Source: Candidatus Cloacimonadales bacterium (GTDB lineage Bacteria > Cloacimonadota > Cloacimonadia > Cloacimonadales > JAFGVF01). Taken from it: a stretch of 64,000 bases of DNA. Shown one piece after another: positions 3,434 to 48,544 of the stretch. The position numbers were made by a program, and so were the translations under genes. Below the pieces are notes generated by a model, which was not told the DNA's origin, ran no database searches, and saw only the letters and a list, made by a program, of their open reading frames with translations. The DNA is taken from assembly GCA_963677815.1 (NCBI GenBank), contig OY782499.1:536147-600146 (forward strand), read 5' to 3'. How positions within the stretch are numbered: position 1 is the first letter of the stretch; each line of letters starts with the position of its first letter.

Positions 3434-5527
3434 ATGGCAACTACAGAATTAGATAAAATTAGAAATATTGGTATTATGGCTCATATAGATGCGGGTAAAA
3501 CAACTACCACTGAAAGAATCCTCTTTTATACAGGAAACATTCATAGGATGGGAGAGGTTCACGATGGTAATACTACTATGGACTGGATGGAACAGGAAAA
3601 AGAAAGAGGTATTACAATTACTTCAGCAACAACAGTTTGCCATTGGAAACACAACCAAATCAATATAATTGACACACCTGGTCATGTTGATTTTACTGCT
3701 GAAGTTGAACGTTCGCTTAGAGTTCTAGATGGTGCTGTTGCTGTATTTTGTGCTGTTGGTGGTGTTGAACCTCAATCTGAAACAGTTTGGCATCAAGCAG
3801 ACAAATACAAAGTACCAAGAATTGCCTTTATCAACAAAATGGATAGAAGTGGTGCCGACTTCGAAAATGTTGTTGAAATGATTCAAGCGAGATTATCCGA
3901 TAAAGCTTTACCTATCCAATTACCAATAGGTAGTGAAGACAGTTTTGAAGGCATTATTGATTTAATCAATATGAAAGCCATATACTTTGATTCTTCTTCC
4001 TTAGGAGCTACTTTTGAAAGCAGGGAAATTCCAGAAGACCTACAAGCTGATGCAGAAATGCATCAAGAAGCTTTGATAGACTTTATTGCAGAGTTCGATG
4101 AAGCTCTTATGGAAAAATATTTAGAAGGACAAAGTTTGACTGCTTGTGAAATTATTTCACTTATTAGAAAAGCTGTTATTTCTAATAATTTCATTCCTGT
4201 TTTATGTGGTTCTTCTCTTAAGAACAAAGGAGTTCAACCCTTATTAGATGCCATAGTAGATTTCTTGCCCTCCCCTCTTGATGTTCCAGCTTTAATTGCA
4301 ACAACAGCTGACGGATTAAAAGAAGAGACTGTTTTACCTAAATTAAATTCTAAGTTTTCTGGTTATGCTTTTAAAGTAGTAACAGATAAATTTTCAGGAA
4401 AACTTGTCTATATCAGAGTTTATTCAGGTACTCTCAAAAAAGGTGACCAGTTCATCAATGTAAATAATGGAAAGAAGGAAAGAGCTGGTAGAATTCTCCA
4501 GATGTATTCAAATAGAAAGCAAGATGTTGATGAACTTCATGCAGGTGATATTGGTGCAGTATTAGGTACAAAATTTACTATGACAGGGGAAACTATCGCA
4601 GAAAAGAACTATAATATACTTCTAGCTAAAATGGATTTCCCGGATACAGTTATTTCAATTGCTATTGAAGCAAAATCTAAATCGGATGAAGCTTCACTAA
4701 AAGATGCTCTTATCAAATTCCAAGAAGAAGACCCAACAATCAAGGTTAGAGAAGATAAAGATACTGGACAAACCCTTATTTCAGGTATGGGTGAGCTTCA
4801 TCTAGAGATTATAGTTGATAGACTCTTTAGGGAATTTAATGTTAATGCTAATGTCGGCGACCCACAAGTTGCTTATAAAGAAACTATTATTGCCCCAAAT
4901 TCGGCTCATGAGTTATTTGATAGAATGCTTGGGGATAAGAGATGTTTTGCTGATGTGAAGATTAGAGTGTCTCCATTATCAGAAGAAGAAATCTCTTCAA
5001 AACAAAAAAATATTTATGAATATAAAGCAGATGAAAAACTTCCACTTAACTTCAGACATGCAATTGAAGAATCTGCAATTAATGCTCTTAATGATGGACC
5101 AATCTTTTCTGCAAATTTAGAGAGAGTTAGGGTTGAAATCTTAGAAGCAAGCACTCTTCCTGAAGAGTCCAATGATACTGGTTTTAGGATTGCTACTTCT
5201 ATGGCAGTATCTAGAGCTATCAGAGAAACTAAATCAGCTCTTCTAGAACCTATCATGCTGGTAACTGTAATAACTCCAGAAGAAAATGTGGGAGATATTA
5301 TAGCTGACATCAACAGTAAGAGAGGTAAGGTTGAAGAGATTAGAAGTCAGAACAATAATAAACAAGAAATCTTGGCTAAGGTTCCAATGAGAGAGCTTTT
5401 TGGTTATTCAACGACAATTAGATCTATTTCCTCAGGTAGAGCCATCTATACGATGGAATATGATAGTTATCAGATAGTACCAAATAATATTAAAGAAGAA
5501 ATTATTAAAAAGATTAGAGGATATTGA
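3434..5527 (+). CDS. fusA: Translation elongation factor G (stand-alone copy, not in an rpsL-rpsG-fusA-tuf context)
   Basis: G1 [10 protein letters not shown]3 DTPGH and G4 NKMD motifs are present. The 697-aa EF-G architecture is complete. Confidence 0.95.
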
Positions 5528-5568
5528 TACTAATAAGCAATTTGACTTTTTGCTCAAGTTTTGCAATA

Positions 5569-5733
5569 ATCCCGAATGGTACAGTAGAGCTTTAGAGAAG
5601 AGTGCAGATTCTTCTAGCAAAATAACTTACATAATTTAGACGCATATAACATATATATTCGGAGAAATTATGGAAGTTCCTTTTGCAGAATAATATAGTG
5701 CTATTCACAAAGGTCTACTGCATTATTTGGGAT
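5569..5733 (+). repeat. R1 repeat, copy 1 (short form, 165 nt): imperfect long palindrome / candidate structured RNA or MITE
   Basis: The ends atcccgaatggtacagtagag ... ctactgcattatttgggat pair. The right two-thirds aligns closely by eye with 39404-39503 and 48365-48459. It lacks the ~30-nt internal hairpin found in copies 2 and 3. Confidence 0.7.
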
Positions 5734-5740
5734 AATAAAA

Positions 5741-13178: not shown

Positions 13179-13210
13179 CTAAAAACAAATAGGGGTTAAC
13201 CCCTATTTGT
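13179..13210 (-). terminator. Terminator of kamE (hairpin overlaps the stop codon)
   Basis: An 11-bp stem acaaatagggg/cccctatttgt with loop ttaa. On the minus strand it is followed by a TTTTT run. Confidence 0.75.
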
Positions 13211-13952
13211 TTAATCTTTCAGCTAATGTTATTGAAATGTAAGAAGCAACATCAGTGGAATAAGAACCGGTACCAAAACCTGCATCATATCCTAATTCTA
13301 CAGCAAGTTCATGATTTATTCTTGGTCCACCACAAACAAAGAGCATTTTATCTCTTAAACCCTCTGCTTCTGCCATCTCCATTAGTTTAGTTAAATTCTT
13401 TATATGGATATCTTTTTGGGTAACAATTTGTGAAACTAAAATAGCATCAGCATTTTCTTCTCTAGCTTTTTTTAATAATTCTTCACATGGAACCTGAGCA
13501 CCCATATTGATAGCATTAATATTTCTGTATCTTTCTAAGCCATAACGATGATTATAACCCTTCATATTCATAATTGCATCAATTCCCACAGTATGAGCAT
13601 CACTCTCAATACAAGCCCCAATAATAGTGATACTTCTACCAATATGTTCATCTATATAATCTTCATTCTCATACATATCCATGACATTTGTTTCAACAAC
13701 TTTAACATGGATTTGAGTCAAATCAACAGAGGCACTAGATGTGCCATAAGCTATGAATTGAGTGAAACCTTCATGTAAGTCATTCATATAACAAACATCT
13801 ATATCATCAACTCCCATTTTAACTAATATCTGGCGAGCTGCTTCTTTACCTTGTTCATTACAGGGAACAGGAAGTGAAAATGAGAACTGCATTCTACCAT
13901 CGTTAAGAGTATCACCGTAAGGACGTATTTGGGTTTTATCTATTGTACTCAT
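13203..13952 (-). CDS. kamE: Lysine 5,6-aminomutase beta subunit (B12-binding)
   Basis: Has the DxHxxG cobalamin-binding motif (ESDAHTVGID). The size (249 aa) and the position directly downstream of kamD both fit. Confidence 0.85.
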   Translation of the reverse strand: MSTIDKTQIRPYGDTLNDGRMQFSFSLPVPCNEQGKEAARQILVKMGVDDIDVCYMNDLHEGFTQFIAYGTSSASVDLTQIHVKVVETNVMDMYENEDYIDEHIGRSITIIGACIESDAHTVGIDAIMNMKGYNHRYGLERYRNINAINMGAQVPCEELLKKAREENADAILVSQIVTQKDIHIKNLTKLMEMAEAEGLRDKMLFVCGGPRINHELAVELGYDAGFGTGSYSTDVASYISITLAERLNK

Positions 13953-13961
13953 CTTTCCTCC

Positions 13962-15524
13962 TTATTTATTTAATCCTAATTCTTCTTTCATCTTTTCCAT
14001 AAAAGGATTCAAATATGCTTGGTCTCTTTGGAAAACACCTTCAAGACCTTTACCACGTTCTTCTGGACGTTTAATATCAGCAAACTCACCATCTCTCATA
14101 GCATTGAAAAGACCTTGTTCTGCAACTCTTTGTAAGAATTCAGTAGCTTCTTCTAAAACACTATTAGCCCTCTTGTTAATAAAGCCATCTGGGTCAAGAG
14201 TAACTTCTTTAGCAAAATCTTTAGTAGCTGAGAAAAGATAATTAGCATTTTCAATCGCCATAGCTCTATCTGCCAAGTGAGGTGTATGAATAGCTTCAGT
14301 TAACATACCAAGTAATTGAACACCTTGATTTGTAACCTGGCCTATAAAGTTAAACATAGCATCCATAAGATGTGTTTTAAAGATATTACCTGAAGCAAAC
14401 TTTGTTGGAGGCATATATTTAGTAGGTGCTGTTGGGAAAAGTGTGCTTGTAAGTAAAGCATGGGATAATTCATAAGAGAAAGAGTTTTCTACAGTTGGGT
14501 CAATTTCATGGGCATGACCAAGACCCATCTTCTCAGGTTCTAAACCAGAAATATAAGCAAACTGCTCATTAATAAGCTGAGAAGCAGTAACTGTGTATGC
14601 CTTCTCAATAGCATCAGAAGTAGTAAGATAGTTATCTTCACCTGTCTGAATTTCGATTCCTGCATAAGCATTAATCATTCTAGAGAAATATTGGTCAAGA
14701 ATTGTTCTTTTAGGATTGATATCACGGAAAAGAATACCATACATAGCATCATTAAGCATAACATCTAATCTTTCAATTGCTCCCATAGCTGCTATCTCAG
14801 GCATACATAAACCGGAAGCATAGTTGGTTAAGGAAATGTATCTTTTAAGTTCATCCCCTACTTCATCCAAAGCCTTACGCATTATCTTGAAATTCTCTTG
14901 AGTAGCAAAAGTTCCACCAAATCCAACTGTTGTTGCACCATAAGGAACATAGTCTAATAAAGATTGAGCTGTAGATCTAATAACTGCTATAATATCTGCA
15001 CCTTGACGTGCCGCAGCCTTAGCCTGAGTCACATCCTCATAAATATTTCCTGTTGCTACGATAACATAAAGGGCTGGTCTTCTGCGTGGACCATACTCTT
15101 TGAACTTGCCTTCTCTTAATTCTCTTTGAGATTTTATGTGAGCTAACGACTTGGTAACTAGTTCATCTAATTTAGCTAAAACTAACTTATCATCTGCTTT
15201 CTCAACCTGTGACAAATCTAATTCACCCTCAACAAGTGCATTTCCAACTTCTTGAACAGTCATATCTTTTGATATCATAGCATTTACAACCCAGTAAGCT
15301 GCACCACGATTAAGAATATTCTTCTCTTTAAGATGATCTACCACAATATTAGGTATAGGTTCGCCACCTTCAATTGCACCATCCATACCCATAAGCCTGA
15401 GAATTGTTCTCTCAATAGCTACTGAACTATATCCGTTGAAAAGCCATTCAAATGACTCAGCTATCTGCTTTGCATAACCACGAGCTGTGGCTATTTTCTC
15501 AGGAGCAATATTTAATTTAAGCAC
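13962..15524 (-). CDS. kamD: Lysine 5,6-aminomutase alpha subunit
   Basis: A 520-aa protein with KamD-like sequence throughout. It uses a GTG start at 15524 with GGAGGA 3 nt upstream, and it is paired with kamE. Confidence 0.85.
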   Translation of the reverse strand: MLKLNIAPEKIATARGYAKQIAESFEWLFNGYSSVAIERTILRLMGMDGAIEGGEPIPNIVVDHLKEKNILNRGAAYWVVNAMISKDMTVQEVGNALVEGELDLSQVEKADDKLVLAKLDELVTKSLAHIKSQRELREGKFKEYGPRRRPALYVIVATGNIYEDVTQAKAAARQGADIIAVIRSTAQSLLDYVPYGATTVGFGGTFATQENFKIMRKALDEVGDELKRYISLTNYASGLCMPEIAAMGAIERLDVMLNDAMYGILFRDINPKRTILDQYFSRMINAYAGIEIQTGEDNYLTTSDAIEKAYTVTASQLINEQFAYISGLEPEKMGLGHAHEIDPTVENSFSYELSHALLTSTLFPTAPTKYMPPTKFASGNIFKTHLMDAMFNFIGQVTNQGVQLLGMLTEAIHTPHLADRAMAIENANYLFSATKDFAKEVTLDPDGFINKRANSVLEEATEFLQRVAEQGLFNAMRDGEFADIKRPEERGKGLEGVFQRDQAYLNPFMEKMKEELGLNK

Positions 15525-15554: not shown

Positions 15555-15582
15555 AATTTATCAAACGGGTATAAATAGTCAA
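15555..15582 (-). promoter_or_regulatory. Sigma70-type promoter for kamD-kamE
   Basis: Read on the minus strand: TTGACT (15582-15577), a 16-nt spacer, then TAAATT (15560-15555), about 30 nt upstream of the GTG. Confidence 0.55.
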
Positions 15583-15593
15583 GAAAAAAAAGT

Positions 15594-15733
15594 CTATGGG
15601 ATGAGACCATCTTTGGTCTCAGGTGGAAGCAGGGATGCTTTCACTACTCCTAACTGGGAAAACGGGTATCTTGCCCGTACCAAGCTTTCCAAGCTTGCTT
15701 TTGTGGAAGCAGGGATGCTTCCACTCCATACAA
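15594..15733 (+). repeat. R2 motif, tandem composite A1 (two-hairpin, 15594-15650) plus A2 (three-hairpin, 15651-15733)
   Basis: Hairpins are tgagacca-tctt-tggtctca, gtggaagca-ggga-tgctttcac, acgggta-tct-tgcccgt, caagc-tttccaa-gcttg and gtggaagca-ggga-tgcttccac. The composite ends in the family tail ccactccatacaa. Confidence 0.75.
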
Positions 15734-15753
15734 AATTTCTTCTCTCATTGCTT

Positions 15754-15780
15754 GGGTGGGCTTTTTTATTTCGCCCACCC
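15754..15780. terminator. GC-rich hairpin (terminator-like) between R2-A and the 3' end of the FGE-domain gene
   Basis: An 8-bp stem gggtgggc/gcccaccc with an 11-nt T-rich loop. There is no clean U-tail on either strand, so its function is uncertain. Confidence 0.4.
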
Positions 15781-15832
15781 TCGCATTTCTTTCAGAAATT
15801 TCTTTTGTTGTTTATAGTTTAGCTCAAAAAAA

Positions 15833-17458
15833 CTAATTTAACCTACGAGCCAAGCGGAAGCCCAGATAGTTGTAGCAATTAGACGGGTAATAGTAGTTGC
15901 GATAAGCTACCCGGCAGAAGTTAGCAAAGCCGTACCAGCTACCGCCCCGATACACACGGCGATAGCCACTAGCAGGTCCCACCGGATTAGTCTGAGCATT
16001 GGAAGAATAAGATCCATACCAATCATTACACCACTCATAAACATTACCGGACATATCATATATACCTAAACCATTAGGAGCCTTAGTTCCTACATTGTGT
16101 GTCGTGGAACTGGAATTATCATAATACCAAGCCACACTATTAATATCATCAGAACCTGCATAAAGGTAATCTGGATTATAAGTCCCACCTCTGGCTGCAT
16201 ATTCCCATTCTGCTTCTGTTGGTAACCTGTAGCCATTGGCTGAGTAATCACATTCCCAAGTACTAGTATTATAGCATGGTGTTAAACCTTCTTGAATACT
16301 TCTGGCATTACAGTATTCAACTGCATCATACCAGCTTACTTGTTCCACAGGTTTATCTAAACCTGAGAAATAAGAAGGATTAGTCCCCATCACAGCTTGA
16401 TATTCAGCTTGAGTAACTTCATATTTACCTATATAAAACGATGAGAGACTTACTTGGTGGGTTGGGACTTCGTCAGAATCTCCTGTTCCTGTTGTTCTTC
16501 CCATAGTGAAAGTCCCTGCAGGTACTAAAACAAAATTATCTGGTATCGTATATATTTCCTCTTCTACAAAAGCACTTTCAAAATCTTGATAAAAGCTTTT
16601 AACTCGATAAAGGTAAATAGATGATGATTCAATATCGCTATCTTCATACTCTTGAGAATTTGCACCCAAGACTGCATACTCTTCTATCCAGTCTTCATTA
16701 TCCTTTTTCCTTGCTATTTTAAATCCATCTTCACCCTGATTATTGTCTACCCAAGACAAATAAACTGATATAAGAGATGTTTGGACTATTTGTAAATTGC
16801 TTGGTGGTGTGAACTCATTATTAACAGAAGTTTCAATAAAATCTGAGTTTACTGTTTCATAATAACTCATTACTCTGTATACATATTCAGAATTAGGCAG
16901 AATTGAATTATCTTCATACTCTAGAGAATTTTGTTCCAATACAGCATATTCTTCTATCCAGTCGTCAGTATCCTTTTTCCTTGCTATTTTAAAGCCTTCT
17001 TCCCACTGATTATTGTCTTCCCAAGTCAATCGAACTGATGTAGGAGATGTTTGGACTATTTGCAAATTTCTTGGTGGTGAGAACTCAGTATTAATAGTAG
17101 TTTCAATAAACTCTGAGCTTATCTCATCATAACATGCCTTCACCCTATACTTATACTCACTATTAGGTATGATATTGCTATCAATATACTCCGTTAAACT
17201 CTCTGTTACTGTAGCATAATCTACATTCCAATCTTCATTATCCTTTTTTCTTGCGATTTTAAATCCTTCTTCACTCAATGAGTTATCTTGCCAAGTTAAC
17301 CTACATTTATTAACAGCTATTTGTTCAATATTGAGATTAGAAGGTCCTGGTAATGTGTAAGAGGGGTCATAAGGATTCACAAAATCATCATTATCACATG
17401 ACCCTATTATTAAAGCAGTAAGTATTAATATTATTAAATTAATAAGTTTTTTTTGCAT
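15833..17458 (-). CDS. Lipoprotein with three Fn3-like repeats and a C-terminal formylglycine-generating-enzyme (SUMF1/FGE-sulfatase) domain
   Basis: Lipobox IIGSC. There are three ~90-aa repeats (LTWxDNxxxEEGFKIARKKDxxDW...YxYRV). The FGE-type C-terminus includes GNVYEWCNDWY and RVYRGGSW. I moved the start to the ATG at 17458, which has AGGAGG upstream. The track start at 17497 overlaps the upstream gene. Confidence 0.8.
   Translation of the reverse strand: MQKKLINLIILILTALIIGSCDNDDFVNPYDPSYTLPGPSNLNIEQIAVNKCRLTWQDNSLSEEGFKIARKKDNEDWNVDYATVTESLTEYIDSNIIPNSEYKYRVKACYDEISSEFIETTINTEFSPPRNLQIVQTSPTSVRLTWEDNNQWEEGFKIARKKDTDDWIEEYAVLEQNSLEYEDNSILPNSEYVYRVMSYYETVNSDFIETSVNNEFTPPSNLQIVQTSLISVYLSWVDNNQGEDGFKIARKKDNEDWIEEYAVLGANSQEYEDSDIESSSIYLYRVKSFYQDFESAFVEEEIYTIPDNFVLVPAGTFTMGRTTGTGDSDEVPTHQVSLSSFYIGKYEVTQAEYQAVMGTNPSYFSGLDKPVEQVSWYDAVEYCNARSIQEGLTPCYNTSTWECDYSANGYRLPTEAEWEYAARGGTYNPDYLYAGSDDINSVAWYYDNSSSTTHNVGTKAPNGLGIYDMSGNVYEWCNDWYGSYSSNAQTNPVGPASGYRRVYRGGSWYGFANFCRVAYRNYYYPSNCYNYLGFRLARRLN
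16560..17345 (-). repeat. Intragenic tandem repeat, 3 x 270 nt (the Fn3-like modules)
   Basis: cttctatccagtc at 16681 and 16951, and ctacattccaatc at 17221, give an exact 270-nt period. Units 2 and 3 are highly similar at the DNA level. Confidence 0.8.
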
Positions 17459-17466
17459 CTTTCCTC

Positions 17467-19455
17467 CTAATTTCCTGCAATAACAGTTCTTATCCAACTA
17501 TAGAGGGAGTAGATAGCCACTCCTGAAGCTGTATAATAGCTATAATCTCTTATATCTCGCCAAGTTTGAGTTTTATCTTTATAATCTAGGGCATCAACAG
17601 GGTTTGTAGTATTTTCATATTGGTCATAATAGGAATTAGCTATAATGTTAGAAGTTATAGCTCCTCCCAGAATTAAACTAGCTAGACCTGTAGATATCCA
17701 AGCTCTTCTTTTATGTTTATCATAATGATATTGTTTTGAACCTGCATAAGTTTCTAAGGGAATGGTAATCTCCTTGTGTTCATTTTCAGTAACGGTAAGT
17801 TTCCCTTGGTAGTCTAAGAATTGAGGGTGAGTAACCTTGAGGTCATAATCACCATAGAGGAGGGAAAGGAGGGCTGGGCTTTTATTCTCAGCTAAGTCAT
17901 TATCTAGATAAATATTAGCATCATTGACTGCTCGATTATTGTTGTATTTATCAACTGTTAAGAGGGAAACTGAGCCTAGTCTAGCTTGTGGTTCTAAGTT
18001 TATAACTTCTTCAGCTCCTACGATAAGATTAATCTCTTTACTGGCATCGAAATGTTTATCTCTTCTGCCTGTAATCTGGTATTTACCTGGCTCTAGATTG
18101 ATGTCCAAATTATCATTGCCCATTTTGACATCATTCAGATATATATCACATTGAGGAGCAGTAATTTTGAGACTTCCAAAGTTTTGAGTTAGGACATATT
18201 CTTTCTTAATAGTCTCATTAGCTGGGATTACTAATTCTTCTTCTACTGGCAACCATAAGTCTTGGGATATCTTGATAGTGTAAGTTCCTGCCATTAGTTT
18301 TGGGTTATGGTAGGGTAGTTTTCCAATCTCTTCTCCGTTTAGACTTAGTAAAGCATTTGGAGTAGAAAGACAGCTAATAGTAACATCTGAAAAATTGGGA
18401 ATTAAGTCTTGGCTTATATCCACTTCATCTCCATCTTGGATCTCAAAAGATTTTGTGACTTTTTGATAAGTATCTAATTCTAAGCTTAATTGGTGCTGTC
18501 CGCTTTCAAGCCTAGTCTCAAGCAAAGGAGTTTTACCAAGGACTTGGTCATCTAAGATTATTCTAGCACCAGGAGGATTTGACTTGATAGAAATCAATCC
18601 ATACTTAGGTCTAAGTTCATACTTTGCTAATCTCAAGGTCTGGTTTGAGGCAAGATTAAATGTTGCTGTTTCTGGATAAAACAAGTCTTTTTCTATAGTG
18701 ATAGTATATTTTCCAGGGAAATGACTTCCTTGATAAGGAGTTAAACCAACTCTTAATCCGTTAAGGCTAACGCTTGCTTCTTCAGGTTGAGATTCAATAA
18801 TAACTAAGCCAGGAGGGGAGAATTTCTCCTCACTTTCCCCCACTTCTAAAGATATATCAATATTTTTATCTGCTTGGGAAATATCAACTATTTTTGTCAG
18901 GGTCTCAAATCCTTCTTTAGCAAATTTAAACTGATAAGTGCCTTTGGGTAGTTTATATTGAGCATAATTGTTTTTAGCCTTGAAGGGTGCGTTGTTGTCA
19001 TAGGAAACCATCACATTTTCAGTATTTAATTTAAAAGTGATAGTTTTTAAGTCAGAAGTAATATCACGTAAACCTTCCCCCTTCTCATCAAGTGTCATTT
19101 TATATACTTTCCCACTCACTAGAGGATATGGGAAGTCATAACGGTGGTCAGCGAAACCATCTTTAGCAAGGATAATATACTTGGCCCTTTCTTTAAGCAC
19201 CACCCAGTAAGACCCACCTTTATTAATCTGAGATATTTTACTGTTCATGTTTTTAAAAAATACATCTTTTAATCCACAGTTAATAATTACTAGGGCTCCT
19301 AATTTATTTCGATTATCCATTTTTAAATTGTTATCAAGATCATACAAACCCATGTGTAGAGGTTCTTCTTCTAAATCCGATACTATTTCAAACTGAGCTC
19401 CAAAAAGTAGTGTCGCCTGTATAACCAATAAGATAAATATTACAAACTGTTTCAT
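17467..19455 (-). CDS. PEGA-domain repeat protein with signal peptide and C-terminal TM anchor
   Basis: Contains repeated PEGA-like units (e.g. PPGARIILDDQVLGKTP, EEASVSLNGLRVGLTP). It has an N-terminal signal peptide and a C-terminal hydrophobic segment WISTGLASLILGGAITSNIIA. Confidence 0.7.
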   Translation of the reverse strand: MKQFVIFILLVIQATLLFGAQFEIVSDLEEEPLHMGLYDLDNNLKMDNRNKLGALVIINCGLKDVFFKNMNSKISQINKGGSYWVVLKERAKYIILAKDGFADHRYDFPYPLVSGKVYKMTLDEKGEGLRDITSDLKTITFKLNTENVMVSYDNNAPFKAKNNYAQYKLPKGTYQFKFAKEGFETLTKIVDISQADKNIDISLEVGESEEKFSPPGLVIIESQPEEASVSLNGLRVGLTPYQGSHFPGKYTITIEKDLFYPETATFNLASNQTLRLAKYELRPKYGLISIKSNPPGARIILDDQVLGKTPLLETRLESGQHQLSLELDTYQKVTKSFEIQDGDEVDISQDLIPNFSDVTISCLSTPNALLSLNGEEIGKLPYHNPKLMAGTYTIKISQDLWLPVEEELVIPANETIKKEYVLTQNFGSLKITAPQCDIYLNDVKMGNDNLDINLEPGKYQITGRRDKHFDASKEINLIVGAEEVINLEPQARLGSVSLLTVDKYNNNRAVNDANIYLDNDLAENKSPALLSLLYGDYDLKVTHPQFLDYQGKLTVTENEHKEITIPLETYAGSKQYHYDKHKRRAWISTGLASLILGGAITSNIIANSYYDQYENTTNPVDALDYKDKTQTWRDIRDYSYYTASGVAIYSLYSWIRTVIAGN

Positions 19456-19561
19456 TTATTCCTCGTTTTCACCTAATAGTAAATTTCATTCATTATTTTC
19501 TTCCTGTTTATGTAGTCAAGAATTTAATTAATTTAAAGCTAAAAAATTGGGAAGGAAGCTT

Positions 19562-19639
19562 TTCAATCCTCAAGTTATTCTTTCCAATAGCTTATCTTTA
19601 AATAAGTCGATAAAATTTCACATCTTTACCTTTTCTTGA
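19562..19639 (+). repeat. R3 repeat, copy 1 (78 nt)
   Basis: 70 of 78 positions are identical to 39576-39653 (ttcaatcctcaagtta...atagcttatctttaaa...gtcgataa...tttaccttttcttga). Confidence 0.85.
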
Positions 19640-19768
19640 AATTTTTTCAAGATTGTTTATTGGTAACAAAGCCTCTTCTGTCGGAAGGCCTGTCTTCCCT
19701 AGCTTTAGCGAAGGGAGATGGAGATTCTCTCCGCCATCTGCGTAACCGCGGGCTGAAATCCCAATACC

Positions 19769-19897
19769 CTATGGACTGGCAGCATCTTGCTGCCAGATTA
19801 ACAGGCTTTGTAAGCCTGTTGTGGATGCAAGATGCACCCACTCCATACAATCCTTTCTCTATTTTAAATTTCTTGTTTTTATTTTTACACAGCCTGG
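19769..19897 (+). repeat. R2 motif, copy B (three-hairpin core 19769-19850 plus downstream module tttttacacagcctgg at 19883-19897)
   Basis: The sequence is ctatggactgg, then hp1 ctggcagca-tct-tgctgccag, hp2 acaggc-tttgtaa-gcctgt, hp3 gtggatgca-aga-tgcacccac, then the tail ccactccatacaa. Confidence 0.8.
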
Positions 19898-19934
19898 CCC
19901 GTCTTCCCAGTTAGGAAACAGCTTCTTTACTTTT

Positions 19935-19990
19935 AGATTGTTACTTACTCATTAAATCATTGGCATTTTATCGAGAGAGTAACAATGAAG
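19935..19990 (+). repeat. R4 hairpin repeat, copy 1
   Basis: agattgttacttactc-attaaatcattggcattttatc-gagagagtaacaat aligns with 62114-62174 and with the reverse complement of 48603-48666. Confidence 0.65.
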
Positions 19991-20149
19991 AGACAGGAAA
20001 TAAGGCAAGTGAGTGATACTGAATCAAGCCTTACCCAAGTGAAAAAGCAACTAAAGGTGATTAAATTGCATTCTAGAGATATAATCTTGACATATCATAA
20101 GCTCTAATCTTTCTATTCAGAACATATAAATAAAATAAAGGGGCACAAA

Positions 20150-22917: not shown

Positions 22918-22975
22918 CTATGGACTGAGACCATCTCTGGTCTCAGGTGGAAGTAAGGATACTTCCACTCCATAC
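22918..22975 (+). repeat. R2 motif, copy C (minimal two-hairpin form)
   Basis: The sequence is ctatggact, then hp1 ctgagacca-tctc-tggtctcag, hp3 gtggaagta-agga-tacttccac, then tccatac. tatgga near the 5' end can pair with tccata at the 3' end. Confidence 0.8.
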
Positions 22976-29231: not shown

Positions 29232-29263
29232 CATATAAAAGACCATTAACAAAGTTGTTTTTG

Positions 29264-29356
29264 TCAGGTCCGGTGCAACTTTAACCCTCGAACCATGTCA
29301 GGTCAGGAATGAAGCAGCATTAAGAGGTGCTTAAAGTGTGCAACCGGTAGCCTGGC
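29264..29356 (+). ncRNA. ffs: Signal recognition particle RNA (small, 4.5S-type)
   Basis: Has the conserved domain IV core gtcaggtcaGGAAtgaagcagc (GGAA tetraloop plus the AGCAGC symmetric-loop strand). The 5' gtcaggtccgg pairs with the 3' ccggtagcctggc. A T7 run follows. Confidence 0.8.
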
Positions 29357-29493
29357 TTTTTTTATATCCAATTTTATAAAAACCCACTTATAACAAGATT
29401 ATTCCCAAACACAAGAAAAAAATATCGAAAAAAACTTGCCAAAAAAGCAATTCCTACTAAATTAGTATATAATACTAAATAAAAGGATGAAAG

Positions 29494-39257: not shown

Positions 39258-39283
39258 TTGTACCCATTTTTTGTTCTTTGTTC

Positions 39284-39503
39284 AACCCAGATGGTGTAGT
39301 AGAACTTTATTAATACTTCGCTAAAGCTACGTATCTCAGGTGAAGAGTGCAGATTATTCTAGCAAAATCCCCTTCTTCGAGGGGGATACAGAGGGTGATT
39401 CCTTAAACTACGCATATAATATATATATTCGGAGAAATTATGGAAGTTACTTTTGCAGAATAATATAGTGCTATTCACAAAGGTCTATTGCATTATTTGG
39501 GTT
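39284..39503 (+). repeat. R1 repeat, copy 2 (long form, 220 nt)
   Basis: The left arm aacccagatggtgtagtagaactttattaata pairs with the right arm tattcacaaaggtctattgcattatttgggtt. Of 32 positions, 24 are Watson-Crick, 5 are G-U/U-G and 3 are mismatches. The left end lies 27 nt from the rsgA start codon. Confidence 0.75.
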
Positions 39504-39575
39504 CAAGTATCAAATCTAATGGTTTTGTTGTAAAGATTTTTTTTAGAAGAGTTTAGTTTGAACATATTGAGAGTG

Positions 39576-45011: not shown

Positions 45012-45078
45012 AAATATAATAGTAAATGAAGAAGTTTATTCTCATCAGTCTTACGACGAAGATGGCGGAGAAAATCTC

Positions 45079-45206
45079 CAGACTGTGTAAAAATGAAAAT
45101 GAGATTTTCAGATGGAGCAAGGGTTGTATGGAGTGGATGCATCTTGCATCTACAACAGGCTCTGAAAGCCTGTTTAATCTGGAGGCAAGATGCCTCCAGT
45201 CCATAG
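45079..45206 (-). repeat. R2 motif, copy D (three-hairpin core 45206-45124 plus downstream module tttttacacagtctgg, read on the minus strand)
   Basis: The minus strand reads ctatggactgg, then hp1 ctggaggca-tct-tgcctccag, hp2 acaggc-tttcaga-gcctgt, hp3 gtagatgca-aga-tgcatccac, then the tail ccactccatacaa. Confidence 0.8.
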
Positions 45207-45436
45207 ATCAACCTTCCCAGTTAGGAAGCATCACTGCTGGCATTCAGACTCTGTGAAACTCTGTGTTAAGGATCTTTCTTCTTTTTAGTGCAATTAGTGT
45301 AATCCGTGGATAGACTATTTCTTTTTACACAGTCTGCTCCACCGTCCGACAGAAGAGAATAATAGGAGACCGGAGTTCCTCAGCTCTAGGCAAAGGACTT
45401 CGGACGAAGCAGACCCACTCTACTTGAAAGAAATCC

Positions 45437-48247: not shown

Positions 48248-48264
48248 TTTATCCTCCTCTGTTT

Positions 48265-48459
48265 AACCCAGATTGTGCAATAGAGCTTTAGTAATACTTC
48301 GCTAAAGCTACGTATCACAGGCGAAGAGTGCATATTCTTTTAGCAAAATAGCTTACAGAATTCCGACGCATATAATATATATATTCGGAAGAATTATGTA
48401 AGTTACTTTTGCAAAAGAATATAGTGCTATTCTCAAAGATCTATTGCATTATTTGGGTT
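48265..48459 (+). repeat. R1 repeat, copy 3 (195 nt)
   Basis: The ends aacccagattgtgcaatagag ... atctattgcattatttgggtt pair. The left end is 18 nt from the start codon at 48247 and abuts its Shine-Dalgarno. Confidence 0.75.
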
Positions 48460-48544
48460 TAATTCATCACAACATATTTCATGCATTATTTATTCCAATT
48501 GTACATTAACTGGTTAAATTATTATCTCCAAAGATTCTTAATAT

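Follow-up and report, generated by a model that had tools for sequence, protein, structure and literature searches.

The block of hairpins upstream of the kamD gene in this Cloacimonadota bacterium is best read, with a probability of roughly 85%, as a BIME-like cluster of REP-type units that belongs to a family specific to the Cloacimonadales lineage and was most likely spread by a RAYT. The window, by which we mean the whole stretch of 64,000 nucleotides that was analyzed, contains this composite (15594-15731) within the 308-nt spacer between the stop of a gene for an fn3 and FGE-sulfatase domain protein (hereafter the FGE gene) and the start of kamD. The positions of the main features are collected in Table 1; loci in other genomes are given by L numbers.

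Table 1. Features of the window, with the transposase gene of a related genome and the segment that differs between close relatives.
Feature	Position	Strand	Details
kamE	13203-13952	-	Pfam
kamD, lysine 5,6-aminomutase alpha subunit	13962-15524	-	PF09043, E 1.6e-243
kamD-kamE promoter (predicted by promoter scan)	15555-15582	-	TTGACT-16-TAAATT
Segment missing in closest relatives	15589-20063		4.5 kb; 74 nt in its place (L008 2132-2205)
Unit A1	15594-15650		Two hairpins: C-type and inverted G-type
A1 C-type REP unit	15594-15622	+	Head CTATGGGA; hairpin TGAGACCA/TGGTCTCA at 15602-15621
A1 G-type REP unit, inverted	15623-15650	-	Hairpin 15623-15644, one G-T pair on the plus strand
Module Z and hairpin	15648-15678	+	TCCTAACTGGGA; hairpin ACGGGTATCTTGCCCGT (15662-15678, ACGGGT..GCCCGT)
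Unit A2	15651-15731		Three hairpins; starts with TAACTGGGA, ends with intact CCACTCCATAC
A2 middle hairpin	15681-15697	+	CAAGCTT-TCC-AAGCTTG
A2 G-type REP unit	15703-15731	-	GTATGGAGTGGAAGCATCCCTGCTTCCAC; palindrome 15703-15724, intact head TCCATAC 15725-15731
GC-rich hairpin	15754-15780	-	GGGTGGGC-N11-GCCCACCC; 8-bp stem (7 G-C pairs), 11-nt loop
FGE gene (fn3 and FGE-sulfatase domains)	15833-17497	-	Pfam
Clean three-hairpin member	19769-19848	+	Intergenic, between the divergent PEGA gene and 899-aa gene
Clean two-hairpin member	22918-22975	+	Downstream of a canonical terminator
Clean three-hairpin member	45126-45206	-	Between convergent genes; module Z 8 nt beyond the C-type head
Y1 transposase (RAYT) gene	L002 3397-3948		MAG OY829950.1; 183 aa

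Structure of the composite and of its repeat family

Folding places five consecutive perfect or near-perfect hairpins in the composite (15602-21, 15623-44, 15662-78, 15681-97 and 15703-24), and both the coordinates and the folding bear out the description, given in an earlier note on this DNA, of a two-hairpin unit (A1) fused to a three-hairpin unit (A2). The fold has a z-score of -8.7 as plus-strand DNA and of -7.5 as minus-strand RNA, and none of 200 shuffled composites folded as well. The head of A1 is two positions off the consensus CTATGGAC, and its closing sequence (CAC-TACTCC) is degraded, as had been noticed, with TACTCC in place of the G-type head TCCATAC. Where the C-type unit of A2 would be expected there is a Z-type unit, the TAACTGGGA at the start of A2 being part of module Z (15648-15659). 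The claim that Z recurs was also correct: it has three matches in the window, at 15648(+), 19905(-) and 45215(-), against 0.27 expected. As the combination of Z and a CGGG hairpin (TAACTGGGAATGCGGGTATCCTTACCCGC) is also present at L007 6361-6389, on the opposite strand relative to the gene when compared to window 15651-15678, module Z and its hairpin are a third REP-like unit type of which Z is the head.

The remaining parts of A2 tie it to the family more directly. Its middle hairpin differs from that of other members by a compensatory G-C to A-T change, and its G-type unit is identical to L002 3169-3197, which adjoins a RAYT gene. Within the window, the 22-nt G hairpin has three matches against 0.00 expected and the C hairpin two against 0.02. 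TRF does not report a tandem array in the composite, since the two units are too different, and the junction of A1 and A2 has no second copy in the window or in the 95 loci. A 73-aa open reading frame on the plus strand (15601-15822) crosses both the composite and the GC hairpin; it lacks a ribosome-binding site and is most likely spurious.

The family is present at four loci in the window, all of them intergenic. Its basic unit is a palindrome of 28-29 nt with a 9-bp stem and a head (G/C/T/A)TATGGA(G/C), of which the first base is variable. C units follow the pattern (C/T)TATGGA-CTGnnnnCATCnnTGnnnnCAG and inverted G units the pattern GTGGAnGnA..nCnTCCAC-TCCATA(C/A), with an optional middle hairpin (CAGGCTT..AAGCCTG) between the two. 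Every clean copy combines a C unit with a G unit in inverted orientation, both heads pointing out, which makes it a REPIN-like doublet; such elements have almost two-fold symmetry, and pairing between the two heads is predicted to be possible. The GTAG (or CGTC) tag of classical REPs is missing, the head of the family reading GTAT at best. Three-hairpin elements also carry a conserved extension of about 50 nt past the G-type head (…TTTTTACACAGYCTGG; window 19849-19895 and 45080-45125, L003 3855-3902, L005 6885-6900), so that the full repeated unit is about 130 nt.

A pattern scan for this design in 185,579 species genomes found it only in Cloacimonadales/Cloacimonadota MAGs, plus one chance match (L006). 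A total of 45 units, 30 of them distinct, were collected from the window and from six Cloacimonadota loci (L001-L005 and L007, with the chance match excluded). When 28 units are aligned, 98% of the cells in the 9-bp stem are paired, and six of the nine pairs change on both sides; the covariation score was reached by none of 500 shuffles, and slid controls were paired in 24-49%. As the paired and covarying stems lie far above these controls, the hairpins themselves are the conserved feature. G-T pairs are rare and both strands consequently fold equally well; such covariation in a DNA palindrome fits selection on single-stranded DNA hairpins or on RNA hairpins alike.

Copies are dispersed between genomes as well as within them. 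The element at 22918-22975 is 100% identical to L007 6628-6686 (OY829950.1) with different flanks, and the coding DNA of genomes that share identical elements at non-homologous loci has an identity of only about 70-80%. Downstream of the site of the 22918 element, L004 shows no synteny. The viral-contig scan gave zero matches to the G unit, and none of 80 Cloacimonadota-like metagenome loci contains a copy of the family; as it is found in few genomes and in none of these 80 loci, its genome-wide abundance is an extrapolation.

Apart from this family, a separate repeat of about 140-240 nt is found at window 5567-5735, 39267-39507 and 48248-48462, as well as at L002 4471-4643 and L004 1-98. It has an internal inverted segment and no match in Rfam, and is 94-96% identical between the window and two Cloacimonadota genomes, for which coding DNA is only about 70% identical.

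Probable RAYT genes within the arrays and relation to known systems

In the related MAG OY829950.1, the two-hairpin form of the family is present on either side of a putative RAYT gene (L002). Its product matches Pfam Y1_Tnp (E 5.8e-11, above the Pfam cut-off). One side of the gene carries an array with a period of 68 and 5.1 copies (TRF) and the other a short, non-periodic cluster of four units; another period-68 array of 3.2 copies (TRF) lies about 2.4 kb off. A homologue with 70% identity in another genome (L094) has arrays of the three-hairpin form on both sides, and the RAYTs embedded in family arrays in these two Cloacimonadales genomes are 183-184 aa long. The family thus includes tandem arrays and also single half-units. 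Judged by sequence, arrays around a Y1 transposase are the defining layout of a REP/BIME-RAYT system.

The assignment of the enzyme is supported by several comparisons. Of the NCBIfam models, NF047646 (REP-associated tyrosine transposase) matches best, at 65 bits (under its 80-bit cut-off), and the IS200 model reaches 27 bits. Phmmer with the single sequence gave no match in the PDB, and a profile of 30 homologues was needed; this profile ranks E. coli TnpA-REP (4ER8, E 4.5e-8) first among the solved structures, before ISDra2 TnpA. The HxH motif (H115/H117) and Y175 are invariant in the 30 homologues, with Y175 in a YIxxN motif that aligns with YIYINPV of 4ER8, and several homologues carry the JGI name RayT. 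An exact-protein look-up found no identical protein on record for the window KamD or for RAYT P0001.

RAYTs and repeats also vary together. The RAYTs at 100% and 70% identity (L002 and L094) share one repeat family, whereas different families flank the paralogues P0021 (57% identical; L095, in the same genome as L002) and P0055 (50% identical; L013), the latter from the genome that is closest to the window among complete MAGs (KamD 86% identical). A tblastn search of the 64-kb window did not find a RAYT gene; we infer that a RAYT acts on these units and that the genome from which the window derives encodes one.

The surroundings of these paralogues contain further repeats. A second hairpin-repeat family (GGAGAnTCTCTCCGCCATCT, CCACCGTCCGACAGAAGAG) flanks P0021 (OY829950.1; L095 1230-1450 and 2100-2260) and is also present at window 19720-19739(+), 45060-45079(-) and 45339-45358(+), where its modules adjoin three-hairpin elements. 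Just upstream of the same paralogue lies a reverse-transcriptase (RVT_1) gene (L095 1-959). At L013 (2400-3000, 3520-3640) the RAYT gene lies within a type I restriction-modification operon, with hsdS and hsdR on its two sides. It is surrounded by arrays of a further multi-hairpin repeat containing GTTCCCAGTAGGC, a sequence similar to module Z; this repeat also occurs upstream of kamD in the same genome (L012 ~3490-3560). Finally, at least nine dispersed copies of TAATGGATTTAGGTTTTAGAC are found in OY829950.1 (L003 564-3800, minus strand), with an irregular spacing of 70 to about 1400 nt that is not CRISPR-like.

Inverted-repeat ends ((C/G)TATGGA(C/G)TGG), a short length (56-81 bp) and identical copies at different loci are equally features of a conventional MITE, which a DDE transposase would have moved in trans at these terminal inverted repeats. 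We consider this exceedingly improbable for the family: each of the two ends folds back on itself as a hairpin in which compensatory changes are independent of the other end, the units also form tandem arrays or stand alone as half-units, the sole enzyme gene embedded in the arrays encodes a Y1/HUH transposase, and the flanks of the six clean copies are devoid of target-site duplications. The latter is the expectation for IS200/IS605-type chemistry. Most likely, then, a RAYT-type HUH/Y1 tyrosine transposase generates and spreads the family; it would recognize the hairpins in single-stranded DNA and cut and join at the heads.

REP/BIME/REPIN-RAYT systems are well described in Gammaproteobacteria (PMC3116915, PMC5581495, PMC3733652, PMC3479197). 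Like the BIMEs of E. coli, which consist of Y and Z REPs, the family has two palindrome subtypes that alternate in orientation with short conserved linkers, is extragenic and tandemly amplified (period 68, up to five copies in L002), and flanks a Y1/HUH transposase with 4ER8, the TnpA-REP of E. coli, as the best profile match. In contrast to the GTAG of E. coli REPs the head is TATGGA(C/G), the stems are richer in A and T (the genome has 32% GC), the three-hairpin form and extra modules (Z and the extensions) are common, and the host is a Cloacimonadota bacterium instead of a gammaproteobacterium. The composite in the window combines two non-identical doublets. As in the REPINs of Pseudomonas fluorescens, an inverted-REP doublet is found, each RAYT paralogue has its own repeat family, and identical 'master' copies reside at unrelated loci; unlike in those REPINs, the halves are distinct self-folding subtypes with only the heads of 6-7 nt pairing across the doublet, and long tandem arrays lie beside the RAYT.

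The HUH/Y1 enzyme, the subterminal recognition hairpins and the lack of target duplication are shared with IS200/IS605 elements and their PATE/MITE derivatives. However, the transposase described here does not have a single left and right end, is not multi-copy and has no TnpB, and the IS200 model scores far under the RAYT model. The family also resembles the pneumococcal BOX elements (boxA-boxB-boxC) in being an intergenic mosaic of short hairpin modules with a variable number of middle modules. There is no sequence relation between the two, and in contrast to BOX elements, which are not known to have a dedicated transposase, the family has a RAYT embedded in its arrays.

The spacer between the FGE gene and kamD

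The earlier note considered that the block could give rise to an independent plus-strand transcript of about 190 nt that ends near 15795; as a structured small RNA it would start at about 15594 and run to the GC-rich hairpin. The predicted structure is indeed very stable, the closing heads TATGGA/TCCATA can pair and thereby enclose the hairpins, and the plus-strand sequence past the GC hairpin is moderately T-rich. Nevertheless, the data argue against such a transcript, which we regard as highly improbable. The promoter scan did not identify a sigma-70-like plus-strand promoter upstream of 15594, and there was no relevant match in Rfam at gathering or at permissive thresholds. Copies of the family have no fixed orientation relative to their neighboring genes (co-oriented, anti-oriented, between divergent and between convergent genes), the element is missing at the orthologous sites (L008-L012), and the family flanks a transposase gene. 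A match that Rfam did return, elsewhere in the window, is the bacterial small SRP RNA (29262-29360 (+); RF00169, 75.5 bits).

The GC hairpin, which would end this transcript, also points the other way. It is present as described, but the T-rich sequence after it on the plus strand (tail TCGCATTTCT) has 5 T in 10, and 1 in 10 in the sense of the FGE gene. Other terminators in the window have loops of 3-5 nt and tails that mostly contain 5-9 T in 10, a single tail containing 3; with its 11-nt loop and poor T-tract the GC hairpin is atypical on both strands and unlike a canonical terminator. One copy of it occurs in the window and one in the loci (L007 6322-6349), the latter directly after an FGE paralogue and in the same orientation relative to the gene. 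The window and L007 align from the coding region through the GC hairpin with 73% identity, and in L007 REP units, including TAACTGGGAATGCGGGTATCCTTACCCGC, again come next after it. The GC hairpin, conserved with the 3' end of the FGE paralogue, is therefore assigned to the 3' end of the FGE gene rather than to the composite; its inheritance with this gene further speaks against a small RNA. The FGE gene itself contains three tandem 270-nt repeats (16639-17295, 78-90% identity), which are probably its fn3 domains.

On the other side of the composite, the promoter scan finds the kamD-kamE promoter, and its -35 box (CTTGAC) is invariant in L008, L011 and L012. The composite begins 11-12 nt from this box, in agreement with the 12 nt noted before. 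The promoter faces away from the hypothetical plus-strand transcript, as had been said, but it is not divergent from the FGE gene, as kamD and the FGE gene are both on the minus strand.

In the closest relatives (L008-L010, KamD 95% identical) the alignment covers kamDE and the SNF2 gene as far as 15588 and resumes at 20064, continuing upward. Within the intervening 4.5 kb are found not only the composite and the GC hairpin but also the FGE and PEGA genes, the element at 19769-19848 and a copy of Z (19905-19916). The composite thus lies at the left edge of this segment, and homology restarts about 6 nt upstream of the -35 box. Upstream of the box, L008 and L011 share TTTCAAACATTTT and the window has CCCATAGACTTTTTTTT; since the former is common to L008 and L011 and not to the window, the state of the window looks derived. 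This suggests an insertion of 4.5 kb in the lineage of the window, with the polarity drawn from one shared feature. A metagenome scan with the FGE protein found no orthologous FGE-kamD junction, and only distant paralogues (at most 45% identity over the full length).

The second suggestion of the earlier note was a protein-binding or insulating element next to the promoter. The block would then be dedicated to kamDE and act in cis, for instance by stopping read-through from the FGE gene or by binding a regulator. It abuts the -35 box, replaces the upstream region of the relatives, and puts five hairpins between the co-directional FGE gene and the promoter, with no canonical terminator between them. 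BIMEs in E. coli bind IHF, gyrase and Pol I, which would count in favor of this idea as well. Yet the closest relatives have the same -35, -10, ribosome-binding site and start without the element, which weakens the case for a kamDE regulator, and the repeat modules that precede this promoter in L011 and L012 are unrelated. The comparison of this intergenic region between relatives, proposed as a check, thus finds the composite absent at the orthologous site (L008-L012) and the promoter kept. Moreover, the presence of the same units at unrelated loci leaves nothing that is kamDE-specific, and the decayed inner heads are expected of an old neutral copy. A dedicated element is in our opinion unlikely; to judge by these sequences, the site upstream of kamD tolerates repeats, none of which is conserved. 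'Protein-binding' is probably true in another sense, as the units look like RAYT substrates.

Two other similarities involve the kamD upstream regions. A 45-nt module (…GTGTAATTCGTGCAATCCGTGGATA…) is shared, at 87% identity, between the repeat mosaic at 45.2 kb in the window (45276-45320) and the region upstream of kamD in L011 (40-84). The composite and the region upstream of kamD in L012 have 12 nt in common (CTACTCCTAACT), a match treated as possibly due to chance.

It is conceivable that the 4.5-kb block with the FGE and PEGA genes moved or recombined to the kamD site through its flanking REP units, as a RAYT- or REP-mediated cassette. The left breakpoint is within 5 nt of the outer head of the composite, and in L002 and L007 arrays of the family likewise enclose homologous PEGA/FGE genes, right next to the RAYT in the case of L002. 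A second copy of the block was not found, and the right breakpoint (20063) is about 150 nt from the nearest repeat module; as this breakpoint does not coincide with a repeat, we rate such a transfer as improbable.

In the favored reading as a BIME-like cluster, the copy adjacent to kamD is a fused pair of doublets of which the inner heads have decayed and the outer heads are largely intact, situated at a rearrangement boundary, the edge of the 4.5-kb FGE and PEGA block. If it influences kamDE or the FGE mRNA at all, this would be a by-product; for instance, the units could provide hairpins in the 3' UTR of the FGE mRNA, act as a barrier to read-through into kamDE, or have replaced the A/T region upstream of the promoter.

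Significance

REP/BIME-RAYT systems are best known from Gammaproteobacteria. The family described here is a clear example from the uncultivated phylum Cloacimonadota. In the searched literature we found no report of REPs or RAYTs in this phylum, and the only two papers that name both terms appear to treat other subjects. The wider point is modest: a known theme recurs here with a non-GTAG head, a doublet of two subtypes, a three-hairpin form and long arrays.

For the annotation of these genomes, a single, ordinary phenomenon can account for the scattered hairpin 'modules' of the window. The composite should not be entered as a gene or as a kamDE regulator, and the same holds for the spurious 73-aa open reading frame, which annotation pipelines could call. 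Should the 4.5-kb block have moved with its flanking units after all, REP clusters would be more than passengers. The elements also mark a hot spot of rearrangement beside a central lysine-fermentation operon.
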